A stretch of DNA of 64,000 nt from Dehalococcoidia bacterium (GCA_030648205.1 JAUSIH010000046.1:1370-65369); one strand, 5' to 3'. Numbered from the stretch's first letter, positions 2,209 to 21,545 are shown. The notes: a model not told the origin generated them from the letters alone. Numbers and translations: made by a program.

Positions 2209-2465
2209 TGTCTCGTCCCTGAAATCTGTGTACAAATTGTCATTGCGAGGACTCCGGCTTGCCGGAGGACGAAGCAATCTGGAGGGGGGTGTACTCCGCA
2301 ACCAGATTGCCACGCCCCGATTTCGTCGGTGCTCGCAATGACATTAGCAACGAACTTCGGGGACGCCACACAGCGGGCTTGCCCGGAAAGCCGGTTGCTG
2401 CTACCGTGTGGCTGCCGGAACTCCAAGCCCTCCGCGCAGTCGCAGAGGGCGCATAAGGGGGTGTC

Positions 2466-3482
2466 ATGCGTCCTCAGTTCGGCATCGTCTTTACGCCCGC
2501 ACCTCACGCGGACCTTGTGCGCTGGGCCACGCTCGCCGAGGAGGGCGGCTTCGAGCGGCTGGGCATAGCGGACAGCCCGTCGCTGTACCGGGACGCGTAC
2601 GCGCTGATGGCCGTCATCCTGGCCAAAACGACCCGCATCCACGTCGGGCCGCGCGTGACGAACCCCGTGCTCGTCCACCCCGGCGTCATGGCGAGCACGC
2701 TGGCCTCGCTGTCAGAGCTGTCTGGAGGCCGCGTGTACATGGGCATAGGCACGGGCCACAGCGCGCTCCTGAACGTGGGGTTGAAGCCCGCCAGCCTGGG
2801 CACGCTCCGGAGCTTTGTCCTGGCGGTGCGCTCGCTCCTGACCACGGGCGAGGCGGAATGGCAGGGCAAACATGCGCGGATGACCTGGCGGGCGGACCAG
2901 CCCGTGCCCATCTACGTGGCCGCGGGCGGGCCGAAGTCGCTGGAGATGGCGGGCGAGATCGGGGACGGGGTGATCATCGGCAACGGCATGACGCCTGAGG
3001 TCGTCGCGCACGACATGGCGTGCATCGAGCGCGGCGCGCGGACGTCGGGGCGCGCGCTGCGTGACCTGCACTTGCAGTGGCTGATGGCGGCGTGCGTCGC
3101 CGACGACCCGGAGCAGGCCGGCCGCGAGGCGCGGGCGCAGATGTGCTCCAACGCCCACAGCGTGTTCCAGCACGGGATCGAGGGACAGTTCGTGCCCGCG
3201 CCATTGAAAGAGCGCGTCCAGGCGCTCTCGGATGGGTACATGGTCACCGAGCACGCACGCCCGGGGGAGTCCGCGCACAACGCTCAGCTTGTGGACGAGC
3301 TGGGGCTGCGCGAGTACCTGATAGACCGGTTTGGAATCGTCGGCTCGCCGGAGCGGTGCGTGGAGCGCATCAAGGAGTTGCAGCACCGGGGAATCAACGC
3401 GTTCTGGATGAGCGTGCACACCACGGAGAAGGAGAGGGTTATCCGGCTTCTGTCGGAGAAGGTGCTGCCGCACTTCCTGTAG
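2466..3482 (+). CDS. LLM-class (luciferase-like) F420/flavin-dependent oxidoreductase, paralog 1
   Basis: 338-aa TIM-barrel LLM signature (GIADSPSLYRD, GIGTGHSA, GGPKSLEMAGEIGDGVIIG). This is the same family as the genes at 6603-7664 and 14329-15369. Confidence 0.8.
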   Translation: MRPQFGIVFTPAPHADLVRWATLAEEGGFERLGIADSPSLYRDAYALMAVILAKTTRIHVGPRVTNPVLVHPGVMASTLASLSELSGGRVYMGIGTGHSALLNVGLKPASLGTLRSFVLAVRSLLTTGEAEWQGKHARMTWRADQPVPIYVAAGGPKSLEMAGEIGDGVIIGNGMTPEVVAHDMACIERGARTSGRALRDLHLQWLMAACVADDPEQAGREARAQMCSNAHSVFQHGIEGQFVPAPLKERVQALSDGYMVTEHARPGESAHNAQLVDELGLREYLIDRFGIVGSPERCVERIKELQHRGINAFWMSVHTTEKERVIRLLSEKVLPHFL

Positions 3483-15369: not shown

Positions 15370-15686
15370 GATGTCCTCCTTGGTGAATGCAGGTTTCGTG
15401 TCTCGGTGTGCGGGCCCGGCCCAGTGTCGCCGAACTGCCTGGCCGCGTCAAGGGCGGGACCGCGAAGACGGGGCCGCCGTAGTTGCGCGAGGGCAACCGT
15501 TCAGCCGCAATCTGCACTCTCCGGAGAAGTCGTGTGGGGAAGACGCTCGCGCCGGCATTAACGCCAAGCCAGTCTGAGGCCTGGGCTGTCTTGCGCGCAG
15601 CGGCCTCCACCACTCCGCGCATGGTGTCCTCCTATCCAAGACGATGCGGTGTTGCGTCCCAGGCTGCCGTGATGGACATCCTTTGT

Positions 15687-16907
15687 TTAATTCCCCCAGC
15701 TCGGATTGTTGTCTTCCTTGGGATTATTGGTGAGGCGTGTCTGGGCGGAACCGTCGGCGTTCATGACGTAAATCTCGTAGTTCCCGTCCCGAATGGAAGT
15801 GAAGACAATCTTGCTCCCGTCCGGGGACCAGGCACAGTAGTCGTCCCGGTTGAAGTTGGGCATGAGTGTGGTCTGGCCAGTGCCGTCTGCGTTCATGACG
15901 CTAACCCCCTCGTTGTTAATGAAGGCAATCTTCCTGCCATCGGGCGACCAGGAGGGCCACGAAGACCCGCTGCGAGTCTGGGTGAGGGCGGTCTGGCTGG
16001 AGCCGTCGGCGTTCATGACGTAAATCTGGGCGTTCCCGCCCCGATCGGAGGTGAAGGCGATTTTGCTCCCGTCCGGGGACCAGGCCGCTTTGTAGTCATT
16101 GGCGCTATTGAAGGTGAGCCTAGTTTGGTTGGAGCCGTCGGCGTTCATCACGTATATCTCGTTGTTGCCGTCACGGTTGGACTGGAAGGCGATCTTGCTG
16201 CCGTTGGGCGACCAGGCTGGGTTGTTGTCATTGGCGCTATTGAAGGTGAGCCTAGTTTGGTTGGAGCCATCGGCGTTCATCACGTACATCTCGTAGTTGC
16301 CTTCACGGTTGGACGCAAACAGAATGCGGCCAGCCAGAGGTGCGGGCGTTGGGGTGGGAGTAACCGTTGGCGTTGGTGTGGTGGTCGGTGTGGGCGTCAT
16401 GGTCGGCGTTGGCGTGACCGTGGGCGTAGCCGTAGGCGTCCACGTTGGCGTCACCGTCGGCGTATAGGTCGGCGTCGGCGTGGGTGTCGGGGTAGGGGTA
16501 AGTGTGGCCGTCGCCGTGGGCGTCAAAGTCGGCGTTGGGGTATAGGTTGGCGTGGGTGTAATGGTCGGGGTTGGCGTGGGCGTAATGGTAGGCGTTGGTG
16601 TTGGAGTATAAGTTGGCGTGGACGTGATGGTTGGAGTAGGCGTCCACGTGGGCGTAACCGTGGGCGTGGACGTTGGCGTCGCTGTCGCCGGCGTAGGGGG
16701 TATCGGCGTCGCTGTGGGTGCAGGCGTGTGTGTGGCTGTGGGCGCTTGTGTTGGCGTGGGCGGAGGCATTAGCGTAAAAGTGGAACTGGGTGTAACGGTG
16801 GGCACTGGCGTCACCGCAGGAGAGAACCGAGATGTCAATACTATCCCGATCAGAGCTACAATGATGCCTACTCCCGCCCAACCTTTCCAACCCAACCAAT
16901 TGGACAA
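15687..16907 (-). CDS. membrane-anchored TolB-like beta-propeller (PD40 repeat) protein with a long Pro-Thr repeat linker
   Basis: N-terminal TM anchor, a ~150-aa PT-rich linker (PTPTxT repeats), then repeated blades of the form [15 protein letters not shown]...[11 protein letters not shown]. Confidence 0.75.
16096..16322. repeat. intragenic duplication: two ~95-bp near-identical copies (3-4 mismatches) 132 bp apart within the beta-propeller coding region
   Basis: tcattggcgctattgaaggtgagcctagtttggttggagcc[g/a]tcggcgttcatcacgta[t/c]atctcg... begins at both 16096 and 16228. The protein shows two identical blade segments [21 protein letters not shown]. Confidence 0.7.
16322..16790. repeat. degenerate short tandem repeats (6-18 nt units, GGCGTxGGxGTx) encoding the Pro-Thr linker
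   Basis: Visible periodic ggcgtgggcgt / ggtgtgggcgt units on the + strand. They correspond to the PTPTxT repeats of the minus-strand protein. Confidence 0.7.
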
Positions 16908-17127
16908 CTGGGACCAGATGCTTTACCTCAAAAGACTGGAGACAGCGTTGTAATTAGACACCCGGTTAACCCACAACGAGCGCGAAGTTATTGTGACCTA
17001 CAAACCTGCGGGGCATTCCATCTTCCCGCCAATTTATCGCCAATGGCCGCTCCATGCTCCCGGTCGCATTACGCCGGCAATCGTTCAGCCGCAATACACA
17101 GCCACCTTGAAGGTTCCGCTCGTGCTG

Positions 17128-17457
17128 TCATTCAGCGCATCCCGTTATGGCGAGCCAACTACCTTCGGGGAGTATATCAGGAAGGCGAGGCTGGAGATAA
17201 GCTCTCCGCAGCTTTATCACCCCATCCCTCGTGGCCTGCACTGCAGCGCCTCCGCCAGGCCTGCCGTGATCCTTCCGGTACCGGAAGGACGAACGATGCG
17301 CGGCCTGGATTGCCTCCGCGCCGGACAGGTCGGCGATTGGGATGGTTGTACGAGTGTGGGTTGATAGATTGATCCAGATCTCGTGGTCGCCTTTCGCTTT
17401 GCGGTCAAGCTCGCACCCCAGCCCTCGCAACCTCCGCGTAAGCTCTCGGTAGTTCAC
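17128..17457 (-). CDS. HicA-family toxin (mRNA interferase) with an atypical C-terminus that reads into a duplicated comM 3' fragment
   Basis: The first 40 aa (MNYRELTRRLRGLGCELDRKAKGDHEIWINLSTHTRTTIP) match the HicA/YcfA-like fold. The following IADLSGAEAIQAAH... is encoded by DNA near-identical to the 3' end of comM (18305-18390). Confidence 0.55.
   Translation of the reverse strand: MNYRELTRRLRGLGCELDRKAKGDHEIWINLSTHTRTTIPIADLSGAEAIQAAHRSSFRYRKDHGRPGGGAAVQATRDGVIKLRRAYLQPRLPDILPEGSWLAITGCAE
17205..17345. repeat. degenerate duplicate of the last ~85 bp of comM (two matching blocks of 41 bp and 26 bp separated by a 54-bp substitution)
   Basis: tcaccccatccctc[gt]ggcctg[c]actgcagcgcctccgcca ... 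gcctccgcgccgga[c]aggtcggc[g]at matches 18308-18390. The alternative frame ends in ...AEALQCRPRGMG*, compared with comM ...AEALQYRPRGMG*. Confidence 0.65.
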
Positions 17458-17717
17458 GCCGCGACAAGCACCTCGCTCGGGATGCCTTTACCGCCCACGT
17501 CAACAGACGTGTCTTCAATCTCCCTGGGAAGGGGGTCCCCTTTGGACTTGTACGACTCGATGAAGGCCGTAGCCACGCTTTGCAAGTTGCCCAGAGCGTC
17601 GGCGGCGGTATCCCCCCACGCGCGGCAGCCGGGGAGTAGGGGGACTTCAGCCAGGTATTTGCCCTCGGTCTCCCTGGTAGGTTCGTGCATTATGATGGGC
17701 AATTTGTACAGCTTCAT
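17454..17717 (-). CDS. HicB-family antitoxin (UPF0150, RNase H-like fold)
   Basis: YLAEVPLLPGCRAWGDTAADALGNLQSVATAFIE matches the HicB N-domain signature. It overlaps hicA by 4 bp. Confidence 0.7.
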   Translation of the reverse strand: MKLYKLPIIMHEPTRETEGKYLAEVPLLPGCRAWGDTAADALGNLQSVATAFIESYKSKGDPLPREIEDTSVDVGGKGIPSEVLVAA

Positions 17718-17724
17718 ACTGGTC

Positions 17725-17943
17725 TCACGCCTCTACAGCAACATACTCAGCCCTGGTGCGTGGCTCGGGTACGGGTAGCTTGTCCTCGATAAGACTTTGC
17801 ACATGGAACTCAATGGCTTCACGCATGTTTCGTAGCACTTCTTTCGGCGTGTCCCCAACCGCCACGCATCCAGGGATATCCGGCGAGTAGGCAGAGTAGT
17901 TTCCGTCTGCCTTCTCAGCAACAATCAAATACCGACGTGTCAT
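17725..17943 (-). CDS. second HicB-like antitoxin paralog (UPF0150)
   Basis: YSAYSPDIPGCVAVGDTPKEVLRNMREAIEFHVQSL; 72 aa. Confidence 0.65.
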   Translation of the reverse strand: MTRRYLIVAEKADGNYSAYSPDIPGCVAVGDTPKEVLRNMREAIEFHVQSLIEDKLPVPEPRTRAEYVAVEA

Positions 17944-18304
17944 TTCTTGTACCCCCTTATCTGCGCCTGTTTGAATATGCTGTGGAGGGTCCCCGACGCC
18001 AAGTCCTTGCCCAGGCTCCCTGGAACGGTAACAAGGCCGGGTATAACAGGGTGTTTGTATTGCCGGTGGCTGCCTCTGGTCCGAGCTAGTACCTACTTGC
18101 GAAAAAGGGCGGTATCATCAACCGCTCGTGGTGAGCTTGTCGAACCATGAGCGGCTCGCCCTTCGACAAGCTCAGGGTGAGCGGGGCTGGGTTCGGCTGT
18201 GTGTACGCTGATTTCTGCAACTAAGTACTAGATACCAGCCATCGGCCTCCAGCATAGCTATGACCTCGCGCACTTTCATTATAGCTTACGAACCATCAGT
18301 CTAT

Positions 18305-19831
18305 TCACCCCATCCCTCTCGGCCTGTACTGCAGCGCCTCCGCCACGTGGACGACACCAATCGCCTCCGCGCCGGAGAGGTCGGCTATCGTCCGCGCCAG
18401 CTTAAGGATGCGGTGGAAGGCCCGCGCCGACAGGTGCAGTTGCTTCATGGCCGCCTGCAGCAGTCCCTTGGTCGGCGTGTCCATCTGGCAGTGCTGGCGC
18501 ACCTCCATCGCCGTCATATCCGCGTTCGCCAGGACGCTCCGCGAGGTGGAGTAGCGCCGCCTCTGGACCTCCCGCGCCGCCTCGACCCGCGCCCGCACCG
18601 TCGCCGAGCCTTCGCCGGAGCGGTCGTCCACCAGCTTCTCGTACTCGACGCGCGGCACCTCGACGAACATGTCTATGCGGTCGAGGAGCGGCCCGCTGAT
18701 GCGCTTCTGGTAGCGCGAGACCAGGCTGGCGGCGCAGGTGCAGGGCTTGAGGGGGTCGCCGTAGTAGCCGCAGGGGCAGGGGTTCATCGCCGCCACCAGC
18801 ATGAAGCTCGCGGGGAACGTGACCGTGCCCTGGGCGCGGCTGATGGTCACCACGCGGTCCTCCATCGGCTGGCGCAGCACCTCCAGCACGTTGTGCCCGA
18901 ACTCCGGCAGCTCGTCCAAGAACAGCACGCCGCGATGGGCCAGGCTGATCTCACCCGGATGGGGCTGCCGTCCGCCGCCGACGAGTCCCGCGTGCGAGAT
19001 GGTGTAGTGCGGCGAGCGGAAGGGGCGCTGCGTCACGAGGGGCGTGTCCGAGGGCAGAAGGCCGCTGACGCTGTAAATTTTGGTGACCTCCAGCGCCTCG
19101 TCCATCGTCATCTTGGGCAGGACGGCGGCAAGGGCGCGCGCAAGGAGGGTCTTGCCACTGCCCGGCGGGCCGCTCATCAGGAGGTTGTGCCCGCCCGCCG
19201 CCGCGATCTCCAGCGCCCGCTTGGCGTGCTCCTGCCCCTTGATGTGCGCCAGGTCCGCTCCGCTCGGCCCGTCGTCCACGGCTGGCGGCGGTCCTTCCGC
19301 GGAAGAATAGGGCGCGATGGACGCCTCTCCCCGAAGGTGCGCCACCAACTCGGTCAGCGCGCCCACGGGCAGAATTGTCAGGTGGTCCACCAGAGATGCC
19401 TCTCTGGCGTCGGATGCGGGGGCGTACACGGTTCGGATGCCCTGCTGGCGGGCCAGCGCCACCATAGGCAGAATGCCTTGTGTATGACGCACGCCGCCGT
19501 CCAGCGACAGCTCACCCAGGAACAGCGTCTCCGTCGCGTCGAACGCCACCTGCCCGGAGCTGAGCAGAATGCCGATGGCGATTGGCAGGTCATAGGCGGG
19601 GCCTTCCTTCTTGAGGTCGGCGGGGGCCAGGTTGACCGTGATGCGCTTGAGGGGGAACTCGCAGCCGGAGTTGCGGATGGCGGCGCGGACGCGCTCCTTG
19701 GCCTCCTGCACCGCCATATCCGGCAGGCCGACGATGGTGAAGCTGGGCAGCCCCGGCGAGATGTCCACCTCCACCTCGACGATGGCGCCGTCCATCCCCA
19801 CGATGGCGCAACTCCGGACCTTTGCAAGCAT
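18305..19831 (-). CDS. comM: YifB/ComM family Mg-chelatase-like AAA+ ATPase
   Basis: N-terminal Lon-like domain, Walker A LLMSGPPGSGKT, the CPCGYYGDPLKPCTC zinc motif and a C-terminal ...RILKLARTIADLSGAEAIGVVHVAEALQYRPRG. Confidence 0.9.
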   Translation of the reverse strand: MLAKVRSCAIVGMDGAIVEVEVDISPGLPSFTIVGLPDMAVQEAKERVRAAIRNSGCEFPLKRITVNLAPADLKKEGPAYDLPIAIGILLSSGQVAFDATETLFLGELSLDGGVRHTQGILPMVALARQQGIRTVYAPASDAREASLVDHLTILPVGALTELVAHLRGEASIAPYSSAEGPPPAVDDGPSGADLAHIKGQEHAKRALEIAAAGGHNLLMSGPPGSGKTLLARALAAVLPKMTMDEALEVTKIYSVSGLLPSDTPLVTQRPFRSPHYTISHAGLVGGGRQPHPGEISLAHRGVLFLDELPEFGHNVLEVLRQPMEDRVVTISRAQGTVTFPASFMLVAAMNPCPCGYYGDPLKPCTCAASLVSRYQKRISGPLLDRIDMFVEVPRVEYEKLVDDRSGEGSATVRARVEAAREVQRRRYSTSRSVLANADMTAMEVRQHCQMDTPTKGLLQAAMKQLHLSARAFHRILKLARTIADLSGAEAIGVVHVAEALQYRPRGMG

Positions 19832-20371: not shown

Positions 20372-20446
20372 GATGCAGGACATTGCGGCTGTACCGAGTG
20401 CTAACGGAGCATACTCGTTTAGTTTCCTTTTCTTCCTAACACGCCA

Positions 20447-20677
20447 CTAAGACCTCGGACGTTTGAGGTACAGCTCACAGCGTATTGCTGTGCGAGTTAT
20501 CAAGCTTAGTGTGCCAGTTAGCTCCCATCCTTGCTCGCCCAGGGTATTCAATAAGGGGCCGGGGTTGTACCAGTCACCGCCGGGACCTCTTACTTTTTCG
20601 AACTTCCCCGAACGCCCGTTGCTATCAACCCAATTAGATTCGTAGACCACGATGACCAAGTACTCCCACTTTTGCAT
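20447..20677 (-). CDS. DUF4177-like small protein
   Basis: 76 aa beginning MQKWEYLVIVVYESNW..., typical of DUF4177 (MxKWEYKVV...). The coding region is markedly lower in GC than its flanks. Confidence 0.55.
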   Translation of the reverse strand: MQKWEYLVIVVYESNWVDSNGRSGKFEKVRGPGGDWYNPGPLLNTLGEQGWELTGTLSLITRTAIRCELYLKRPRS

Positions 20678-20713
20678 AGTACTCCTCTCTCGTCACCTAC
20701 CCTTTAGCCAAAG

Positions 20714-20753
20714 CGCGGACTGCGGCCCGCCCCATTATAGCCGCGACGCCGCC
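20714..20753 (-). promoter_or_regulatory. 40-bp direct-repeat copy 2 (1 mismatch to copy 1), carrying a TATAAT box ~58 bp upstream of the DUF4177 gene start
   Basis: cgcggactgcggcccgccccattatagccgcgacgccgcc. Confidence 0.45.
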
Positions 20754-20804
20754 ACTTCTCCATCGGGCGCAGGCGCTATACTCAAGGTGCGGGAAAGGAG
20801 CGCA

Positions 20805-21545
20805 ATGCCGTTCACCACGGATGTCCAGACGATGACCAGAACGGGCATGGAGCGCCTTCTGGACCAGATGGAGGGCCCCGGCCTTGGACGGGTGACACTC
20901 TACCTTCCGCCCGCGTCTCTCCTCGCTATCCGGACGCTGCTCGCCGGGGCGGACCCCGAACTGGCCGACGAGGTGGCGCGCAAGGCCGACGACACGTGGT
21001 CGGGCGCGGCGGTGTTCCTGTCCGCCGACCAGGCGTATATCGTCGCGCCTCCATTCCCCATCCGTGCCGAGAGTCGCAGCGACGGCTGGGACGGCGCGCC
21101 GCTGCGCGCGCTCTTCGCTCGGCGCTATCTCCTGGGCGTGGTGCTCCTGAGGCTGGGGGCGTACGCCGTCGGCGTGCTGGACGGCGACGAGATGGTCGTC
21201 TCCAAGGCGGACACGCGCTACGTGAAGGGCAAGCACCACGCGGGCGGGTGGTCGCAGCAGCGCTTCGCGCGTAGACGTGAGAAGCAGATGCGCGAGCTGT
21301 TTGACGAGGCGTGCGAGGTGGCGCGTGACTGTCTGGCGCCCTACGAGCGGCGGCTGGACTACATATTCCTCGGCGGTGAGAGGTTGACGCTGCTGGCTTT
21401 CCGCAAGCGGTGTCCCTATCTGGAGAGGCTCGCCGAGAAGATAGCGCCGCGCATTCTTGAGGTGGAGCGGCCCAACCGCGGGGCGCTGGAAGGCATCCCC
21501 CGCGAGGTCTGGAAGTGCCGCGTCACCCTGTTCCGGCGGGCGTGA
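20805..21545 (+). CDS. putative Vms1/ANKZF1-like (VLRF1 family) release-factor-fold peptidyl-tRNA hydrolase domain protein; hypothesis, otherwise a conserved hypothetical protein
   Basis: SD aaggag is 7 nt upstream of the ATG at 20805. Basic motif KGKHHAGGWSQQRFARRREKQMRELF (a GxxQ followed by RFxRRRE), which I recall as the VLRF1 catalytic loop. No other recognisable domain. Confidence 0.4.
   Translation: MPFTTDVQTMTRTGMERLLDQMEGPGLGRVTLYLPPASLLAIRTLLAGADPELADEVARKADDTWSGAAVFLSADQAYIVAPPFPIRAESRSDGWDGAPLRALFARRYLLGVVLLRLGAYAVGVLDGDEMVVSKADTRYVKGKHHAGGWSQQRFARRREKQMRELFDEACEVARDCLAPYERRLDYIFLGGERLTLLAFRKRCPYLERLAEKIAPRILEVERPNRGALEGIPREVWKCRVTLFRRA

Follow-up and report, generated by a model that had tools for sequence, protein, structure and literature searches.

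We examined a 64,000-nt stretch of a Dehalococcoidia bacterium (GCA_030648205.1 JAUSIH010000046.1:1370-65369; hereafter the window, over the whole of which repeats and copy numbers were counted) in which comM is followed by hicAB toxin-antitoxin genes and by a second copy of its own 3' end. On structural and evolutionary evidence, we consider it highly probable that the segment from 15.6 to 18.3 kb is a small hotspot of horizontally acquired cassettes that have piled up and are now decaying. The comM-like fragment in this segment is the displaced relic of an earlier comM tail. The toxin-antitoxin block (17338-18304) consists of two hic pairs, hicA1-hicB1 and then hicB2-hicA2. Finally, a 109-aa open reading frame (ORF) that joins a HicA N-terminus to ComM residues is, on sequence comparison, hicA2 broken by a later 100-bp deletion, and not a product of the integration event. 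Coordinates of all features are given in Table 1. Two relatives were used throughout: L082, a 5-kb Logan contig (SRR22387924) with ~92-94% nucleotide identity that is syntenic from comM to a luciferase-like gene, and L001, a groundwater Chloroflexi metagenome-assembled genome that is the closest genome relative (ComM 72% identical).

The ComM protein matched TIGR00368 over positions 2-499 of 499 with 611.5 bits (cut-off 362.4) and contains the Pfam domains ChlI, Mg_chelatase, and Mg_chelatase_C. The last 84 nt of its gene (18305-18388) are repeated at 17217-17336, with no further copy in the window. A preliminary description of this DNA had proposed that the comM 3' end is duplicated around the toxin-antitoxin genes, and the duplication was borne out by two matching blocks. 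The first is 41 nt long with 3 mismatches and includes the stop codon (17217-17257 against 18305-18345), and the second is 29 nt long, also with 3 mismatches (17309-17337 against 18360-18388). Each block occurs exactly twice, where shuffled sequences would give 0.00-0.02 occurrences. The repeat is not a chance match, nor is it dispersed within the window, as a repeat present at many loci would be. What did not hold was the 54-bp replacement reported between the blocks: the spacing is 51 nt in the downstream copy against 14 nt in comM, a net gain of 37 nt.

This spacing is explained by an allelic comM tail carrying a hairpin insertion. When positions 17259-17295 are removed, the downstream copy reads in frame as IADLSGAEAIQAAHLAEALQCRPRGMG to its stop, an intact comM tail of the QAAH type. 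It is identical to the working tail of the window at 69 of 84 nt and to the L082 tail at 68 of 84 nt. The relic of L082 has a 24-nt insertion at the equivalent point, with ends shared with the 37-nt insertion of the window, and both the relic and its insertion are therefore older than the split between the two lineages. The alleles themselves are distributed among the relatives. The QAAH segment is found in the relic of the window and in the working comM tail of L082, while the GVVH segment is found in the working tail of the window and in both tail copies adjoining hicA1-hicB1 in L001, such that a GVVH tail accompanies this gene pair in both genomes. The two tails of the window differ at 8 of 15 positions in the one short segment that matches the alleles of relatives and by 7-10% elsewhere. 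The comM genes of the window and L082 are ~97% identical until ~18375 (codon ~484), and divergence is confined to the last ~70 nt, which places an exchange point within the tail.

Direct repeats of the target-gene end are present at both borders of the toxin-antitoxin block, and L082 and L001 each have three tail copies. In L082, the working comM tail is followed directly by a DUF4258 and MqsA-like zinc-finger pair, then by a second relic of 45 nt with the same 19-nt downstream flank as the working tail of the window, and then by a 12-codon hicA1 stub, hicB1, a zinc-finger gene remnant, hicB2, an intact 69-aa hicA2, and a third relic. The remnant is 112 nt of an antitoxin-like gene (1485-1596), at which place the window has 7 nt between hicB1 and hicB2. 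In L001, comM is followed by a 430-aa membrane ORF, a comM fragment (residues 349-505), intact hicA1-hicB1, and another comM-tail fragment, within which the contig ends. L171, which represents a third lineage, has comM, then hicB2-hicA2 and an orphan hicB1-like gene. In the arrays of relatives, different toxin-antitoxin cassettes are thus set apart by comM-tail copies, of which there are two or three. That comM is an insertion hotspot, as had been suggested, agrees with the literature (PMC11472951) and with what we observed in this clade (L082, L001, and L171/L172).

The 109-aa ORF is chimeric, as first described, with a C-terminus derived from comM. HicA_toxin (PF07927) matched residues 3-41 only (positions 1-38 of the 58 in the hidden Markov model, 28.7 bits), and residues 42-55 (IADLSGAEAIQAAH) are the ComM tail peptide (IADLSGAEAI...). 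Full-length HicA relatives scored 63.6-77.4 bits over positions 1-58. A complete HicA domain has 58 positions forming a helix, three strands, and a helix; the chimera does not contain one, and the C-terminal helix region NWG..GT..ILRDLGI is absent. Residues 1-40 are 95% identical to those of P0001, the 69-aa HicA of L082. Similarity to other HicA proteins ends at this same residue: all 62 database homologs align to residues 1-40 only, nearly all are 69 aa long and continue as NWG..DLKPGT..ILRDLGI, and none of the 62 has a ComM-like C-terminus. Exact look-ups of the chimera and of ComM gave no record of either.

Comparison with L082 shows how the chimera came about. Window position 17337 corresponds to L082 1977 and position 17336 to L082 2078, and the 100 bp that are gone comprise hicA2 codons 41-69, the stop, and a short spacer before the relic. 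At this border the window has the arrangement of L082 minus exactly these 100 bp. Because hicA2 is intact in L082 and the relic starts 11 nt past its stop, the chimera originated in a later deletion. This deletion, whose ends have no repeat, brought codon 40 of HicA up against the relic, where the reading happens to stay in the ComM frame for 14 codons. The stop of hicB2 and the GTG start share 4 nt, and the same overlap was found in L082, L163, L164, L166, L169, L170, and L171.

PDB 1WHZ could be aligned over the full 69 aa of HicA homologs. This alignment and an AlphaFold model indicate that the chimera keeps helix 1, the three strands, and His25 but has lost the C-terminal helix of the double-stranded-RNA-binding-like fold. 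The predicted local distance difference test (pLDDT) score of the model reaches 73-77 in residues 1-40 and stays below 50 in most of the remaining 69 residues. His25 is the histidine of a G-x-H motif (KGDHEIW), is invariant in a 13-sequence alignment, and presumably has the catalytic role described for HicA proteins. The chimera had been described as either inactivated or repurposed. We favor the first, since codons 41-69 are lost, and not the second, since the tail is frameshifted, is absent in L082, and has low pLDDT. We interpret the 109-aa ORF as a pseudogene by-product of ordinary decay, with no new protein. Separately, a HicA of the same subfamily (P0048, L081 4983-5264) is cut short within 3 nt of the same codon (TTIS/L...) in an unrelated context, adjoining DUF433/DUF5615 and GmrSD/HEPN genes. 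This could be a coincidence or could point to a fragile site in the hicA gene.

The segment between the repeats had been said to hold only HicA and two HicB genes. It also holds a split hicA1 (18279 down to 17940) and a 138-bp insert that splits it. The hicA1 ATG is 25 nt past the comM stop, and the two pieces of the gene are in different frames. The ends of the insert are terminal inverted repeats of 13 bp that match imperfectly (TACCTACTTGCGA / TACTTAGTTGCAG), its core is palindromic (18122-18184), and the target sequence CTAG is duplicated on either side (18086-18089 and 18228-18231). The intact hicA1 of L001 lacks the insert. When the insert is taken out of the window together with one CTAG, a 65-aa ORF is restored that has HicA_toxin over positions 2-58 of 58 (74 bits). 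The insert thus resembles miniature inverted-repeat transposable elements (MITEs) in being short and non-coding, in its inverted repeats and 4-bp duplication, and in that its removal restores the gene. Unlike MITEs, it was not found in multiple copies: the window holds a single copy, and neither a full second copy nor a parent insertion sequence was found in the window or in the relatives' loci examined, where only partial matches to the core occur, twice, in L081. Translation of the core yields peptides of the ...LSKGEP.../...VRQAHHER... type. An Rfam search of 16800-18500 gave a single sub-threshold chance match, located in the core, and a promoter and terminator scan gave counts at shuffle level with single sites falling within the insert.

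The antitoxin genes have fared differently from the toxin genes. HicB1 is 93% identical to its L082 counterpart and 82% to that of L001. The orthologs of hicB2, whose own score is slightly under the PF15919 cut-off, are listed under that family, and each precedes a 69-aa HicA homolog with a 4-nt overlap; no NCBIfam model matched the small Hic proteins. The ratio of nonsynonymous to synonymous substitution rates (dN/dS) relative to L082, each value based on just 17-24 substitutions, was 0.11 for hicB1 and 0.18 for hicB2, similar to the values of 0.13 for comM and 0.21 for the luciferase-like gene. Both hicB genes therefore appear to have evolved under purifying selection. Toxin genes have been damaged three times independently, by two lesions in the window, the MITE-like insert in hicA1 and the loss of 100 bp from hicA2, and by an internal deletion in hicA1 of L082 (1229-1268), where a 12-codon mini-ORF (MFKQAQIRGYKK) still overlaps the hicB1 start. 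In the window, both toxin genes are broken beside intact orphan antitoxin genes. This pattern fits the usual path of decay, in which toxins are lost first and antitoxins are kept. The HicB proteins that remain may serve as regulators, or they might protect against incoming hicA copies.

The hotspot extends beyond the hic genes. GC content is 0.53-0.60 across 15600-18300 as opposed to 0.69-0.71 in comM, and homology to L082 resumes only at 15608, leaving 17209-15609 without an L082 counterpart. Gene content between comM and the luciferase-like gene differs among the window, L082, and L001, so that breaks in both synteny and composition are present. A second cassette carries a PD40 gene, in place of which L082 has a Kelch-repeat gene (2278-3360). 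The Pro/Thr-rich linker of the PD40 protein is encoded by periodic repeats of 12-24 nt (16300-16780). A sequence of ~65 nt, T, lies upstream of the luciferase-like gene and is single-copy in L082; in the window, two partial copies of it, T1 and T2, bracket the PD40 gene. When the three copies are aligned, T1 is identical to L082 on its left and differs in its middle, and T2 is the reciprocal mosaic, its middle and right parts matching L082 and its left part differing. No recombinase, integrase, or transposase domain was found among 20 ORFs scanned with Pfam (~5.8-30.7 kb), and none of these genes was found in L082 or in the L001 insert. The low-GC block supports a foreign origin of the segment.

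Table 1. Features of the comM hotspot, in window coordinates.
Feature	Position	Strand	Evidence
comM (YifB/ComM-family AAA+ ATPase), full length, 508 aa	18305-19831	-	TIGR00368 and Pfam
Working comM tail, last 27 codons and stop (IADLSGAEAIGVVHVAEALQYRPRGMG); upstream copy of the direct repeat	18305-18388	-	
Low-GC variable segment from comM to the luciferase-like gene (whole hotspot)	15609-18304		GC content and L082 synteny
hicA1 5' piece (MKVREVIAMLEADGWYL...), ending in one CTAG copy (18228-18231)	18228-18279	-	
MITE-like insert of 138 bp splitting hicA1	18090-18227		Alignment to intact L001 hicA1
hicA1 3' piece (...ARTRGSHRQYKHP...FKQAQIRGYKK and stop); stop overlaps hicB1 ATG (ATGA)	17940-18089	-	Different frame from 5' piece
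hicB1 antitoxin gene, intact, 72 aa	17725-17943	-	PF15919, 45.6 bits (cut-off 27)
hicB2 antitoxin gene, intact, 87 aa	17454-17717	-	PF15919, 25.5 bits (slightly under cut-off 27)
hicA2 remnant, GTG start overlapping hicB2 stop, codons 1-40 only	17338-17457	-	L082 homology, Pfam
Chimeric ORF of 109 aa: HicA2 residues 1-40, 14 in-frame ComM-tail residues, frameshifted and non-coding read-through	17128-17457	-	
Deletion joint, 100 bp missing relative to L082	17336-17337		BLAST coordinates and multiple alignment with five full-length homologs
Relic of former comM tail (QAAH type); downstream member of the direct repeat	17217-17336	-	Alignment
Insertion of 37 nt within relic, with hairpin at 17270-17289 (TCCTTCCGGTACCGGAAGGA, -16.3 kcal/mol)	17259-17295		
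T1, partial copy of sequence upstream of luciferase-like gene; comM side of PD40 cassette	17076-17138	-	
PD40 beta-propeller protein gene with Pro/Thr-rich linker; second hotspot cassette	15687-16907	-	Pfam PD40, E = 2.2e-43
T2, syntenic copy of luciferase-upstream sequence; far side of PD40 cassette	15492-15560	-	

We propose that each cassette would arrive as a circle or fragment with its own copy of the host target. The incoming copy would then recombine with the resident copy, in the manner of Campbell integration, through RecA or a recombinase acting in trans. Such recombination would leave comM intact and push the old tail downstream. We favor recombination with a diverged incoming copy because of the mosaic allele patterns seen both in T1/T2 and in the GVVH and QAAH tails; filling-in at a staggered break fits these mosaics less well. 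On balance, we judge this Campbell-type route to be slightly more probable than not. An integron cassette array was considered and rejected, as the separators are copies of host genes and not attC-like and no intI integrase was found.

Several observations weigh against this interpretation. A circular intermediate, an integrase, and an att core have none of them been demonstrated. Relic lengths vary (45, 84, and at least 38 nt), as do their starts (residues ~465, 481, and 493). Three junctions fall within one ~30-nt stretch of the comM tail (GCGCAC/CTGGCGGAGGCGCTGCAG; window 17217-17345, L082 1161-1209 and 2078-2169), namely the 37/24-nt insertion, the left end of the second L082 relic, and the right end of the third. 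This clustering may mark a recombination core and could mean that an unseen site-specific recombinase is at work. In relatives, filled arrays were seen in L082 and L001 but an empty comM 3' site in a close relative was not found, either in a genome scan with ComM (best protein identity 72%) or in a metagenome scan with the ComM C-terminus (best 67%). As for decay, the dN/dS values reflect few substitutions, and the truncated HicA2 is predicted to be non-toxic from fold logic and a low-confidence model. Lastly, the hicB2-hicA2 cassette type is also flanked by duplications of other host genes, of 58-107 nt, in L163 and L169. A mechanism specific to comM does not explain these, and the flank, T, insert, T, flank pattern thus also occurs away from comM.

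In L163, 58-68 nt of the 3' end of a FAD-oxidase gene are repeated (4628-4695/5233-5300); the match over 58 nt had a score of 91, where shuffles gave at most 27. The last five codons of this gene are now supplied by the cassette side. In L169, the repeat is 107 nt and consists of the gatC promoter and first 17 codons (2546-2652/3218-3324; score 98, shuffle maximum 27). Relatives of hicB2-hicA2 occupy unrelated contexts in other Chloroflexota, and no flank repeats were found around the pair in L164, L166, L170, or L171. A flank repeat in L081 (score 31, shuffle maximum 30) was taken as chance.

One alternative to Campbell-type recombination is that the locus is what remains of a single integrase-borne island, with the working tail as attL, the relic as attR, and the integrase and most of the cargo deleted later. 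Recombinases do target comM: of two strains that are 99.6% identical, L171 has an empty site and L172 an occupied one, with the break at codon 350, and of the seven IMG/VR contigs checked, six have a comM 3' fragment immediately adjoining a large serine recombinase gene. The clustering of tail junctions also speaks for an island, and the tandem islands at ssrA of Dehalococcoides have 3'-end repeats and in some cases lack integration modules (PMC3146451). However, the breakpoints linked to recombinases are at residues 215, 300-307, 330, and 349 and not at 481-495, and large serine recombinases split their target without an 84-nt duplication. What L082 and L001 contain is not one island but a number of small, independent cassettes, every one of which has a tail copy to itself, and the near identity of window and L082 comM up to codon ~484 puts the exchange point in the tail. 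The same identity, which is ~97% from codon 350 to ~484, led us to reject the codon-350 site as the origin of the relic. A picture of one island between attL and attR is thus too simple, as no integrase is nearby and the two tail copies are mosaics of alleles, and we find this explanation doubtful.

A true long target-site duplication, in which insertion occurs at widely staggered breaks or by end-joining, template switching, or copying resembling that of complementary DNA, also appears unlikely. Filling-in would copy 45-110 nt of the host target, giving copies that are identical at first and diverge later. The classical geometry of such an event was found at three unrelated host loci for one cassette type, and repeat lengths are variable, no recombinase is present in cis, and the right end of the cassette is always within ~30 nt of the hicA stop. 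On the other hand, the copies are unevenly diverged. Relative to the one copy in L082, T1 and T2 form reciprocal mosaics, and the tails depart from each other mainly in the segment that matches the alleles of relatives (8 of 15 positions, 7-10% elsewhere). Uneven divergence that follows circulating alleles is better accounted for by recombination between two alleles than by duplication in place.

We think it very improbable that the chimera is a working, repurposed protein, such as an RNA-binding or HicB2-binding module that derives from HicA and is extended by a new C-terminus. Its ORF runs for 109 codons without interruption, the GTG start is still coupled in translation to hicB2, whose stop it overlaps, and His25, helix 1, and the three strands are preserved with pLDDT of 73-77; the second HicA, P0048, is truncated at nearly the same codon. 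Yet the C-terminus is shared by 0 of 62 homologs, the close relative L082 has a normal 69-aa gene, the extension crosses the frameshifting 37-nt insertion and non-coding DNA with pLDDT mostly below 50, and the helix that closes the fold is missing. The sister gene hicA1 is also inactivated, here and independently in L082, which fits a general loss of toxins. An assembly artefact, in which the repeated comM tail caused a mis-join or collapse, can practically be set aside: all close matches are metagenome-assembled, which suggests that the window too comes from an uncultured Chloroflexota, and the L001 contig ends inside such a repeat, so these repeats do break assemblies, but the independent L082 assembly shares the gene order, the relic, and the insertion in it, the deletion ends have no repeat to cause a collapse, and the tail copies can be told apart (7-10% plus the divergent segment).

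The duplications in L163 and L169 raise the tentative idea, which we hold to be rather improbable, that cassettes without a recombinase are mobile in these Chloroflexota, leaving 45-110-nt host duplicates and stacking, with the comM tail as a favored site. The cassettes concerned are toxin-antitoxin pairs and single surface-protein genes, and the host gene is intact. The five-unit set comprises comM-tail repeats around hicA1-hicB1, hicB2-hicA2, and the DUF4258/zinc-finger pair, and, for other hosts, the FAD-oxidase tail (L163), the gatC 5' end (L169), and the luciferase-upstream sequence around the PD40 gene. If this idea is true and a single mechanism is responsible, it would be a distinct and undescribed mode of gene-cassette mobility. 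Searches of the literature for toxin-antitoxin cassettes with flanking host duplications or for comM-specific integrases found nothing directly matching. These recurring duplications of host sequence around recombinase-less cassettes are the only part of our findings that could lead to something new.

Comparable arrangements exist elsewhere. In icd of E. coli, phage 21 and e14 enter the 3' end of the gene and supply a substitute, and the old end remains downstream. In the accretion of ICESt1/CIME elements at the 3' end of fda in Streptococcus thermophilus, remnants without an integrase retain both repeats, and further elements stack beside them. The comM locus is like these systems in that the gene is kept intact and its original tail is left as a downstream fragment. 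It is unlike them in that they have defined tyrosine integrases and a fixed crossover, neither of which is seen here.

The ssrA islands of Dehalococcoides have a fixed 20-bp repeat of the 3' end of ssrA; 16 of 31 have a serine recombinase (DsiB) module with cargo of several kb, and some units without an integration module were read as accreted, cis-mobilisable, or fixed remnants (McMurdie et al. 2011, PMC3146451). Our locus is in the same phylum, where these islands are its closest precedent, and likewise has tandem units behind a conserved single-copy gene, 3'-end repeats, low GC, and a synteny break. It differs in its protein-gene target, its variable repeats of 45-84 nt, its units of 0.5-1.5 kb, and the lack of a recombinase in the locus. 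Mobile elements also make recurrent use of comM in Acinetobacter and in Pasteurellaceae, inactivating it there (PMC11472951). AbaR/Tn7-like and other elements in comM of Acinetobacter baumannii (PMC11472951) and prophages with large serine recombinases likewise target comM but interrupt it, whereas the cassettes in the window sit behind an intact 508-aa comM and duplicate its last 27 codons. The role of comM as a landing site is thus extended to Chloroflexota, here with the gene spared.

The hic genes themselves are like type II hicAB (PF07927, PF15919; 1WHZ) in their overlapping two-gene layout, and the reconstructed HicA1 and the L082 HicA2 match the whole domain; unlike type II hicAB, neither toxin gene of the window is intact. 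The locus is a compact and well-resolved example of toxin-antitoxin decay, with two sister lineages, three lesions, and antitoxins kept. For annotation, the 109-aa ORF should be recorded as a hicA pseudogene, a second hicA pseudogene and the MITE-like element should be added, and the comM fragment should be marked as a relic.

We also noted insertion sites elsewhere in comM. Codon ~350 (motif NP/CPCGY) is a real insertion site, at which an element starts exactly in the L171/L172 comparison (L171 9170, L172 8009), the element side carrying a ParB-methyltransferase and a RAMA/DUF4357 protein. Fragments of comM from residues 349-351 lie downstream of full-length comM in L001 (8831) and L011 (11769), and a fragment of the codon-350 type lies upstream of comM and inverted in L138 (1430) and L139 (126); L026 (8561) is a further instance of this site. 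In IMG/VR contigs L174, L175, L176, L178, L183, and L187, comM 3' fragments lie immediately next to large serine recombinase genes. The fragments start at residues ~215 (in the Walker A region), 300-307 (in the Walker B region), 330, or 349, and in L187 a piece of comM 38 codons long lies between two such genes. It appears that prophages use several conserved motifs of comM as attachment sites. Outside the hotspot, two genes upstream of comM, a gene similar to release factors of the Actinobacteria/Chloroflexi VLRF1 type (20652-21545; PF18859, E = 3e-35) adjoins a short low-GC stretch at 20400-20700.

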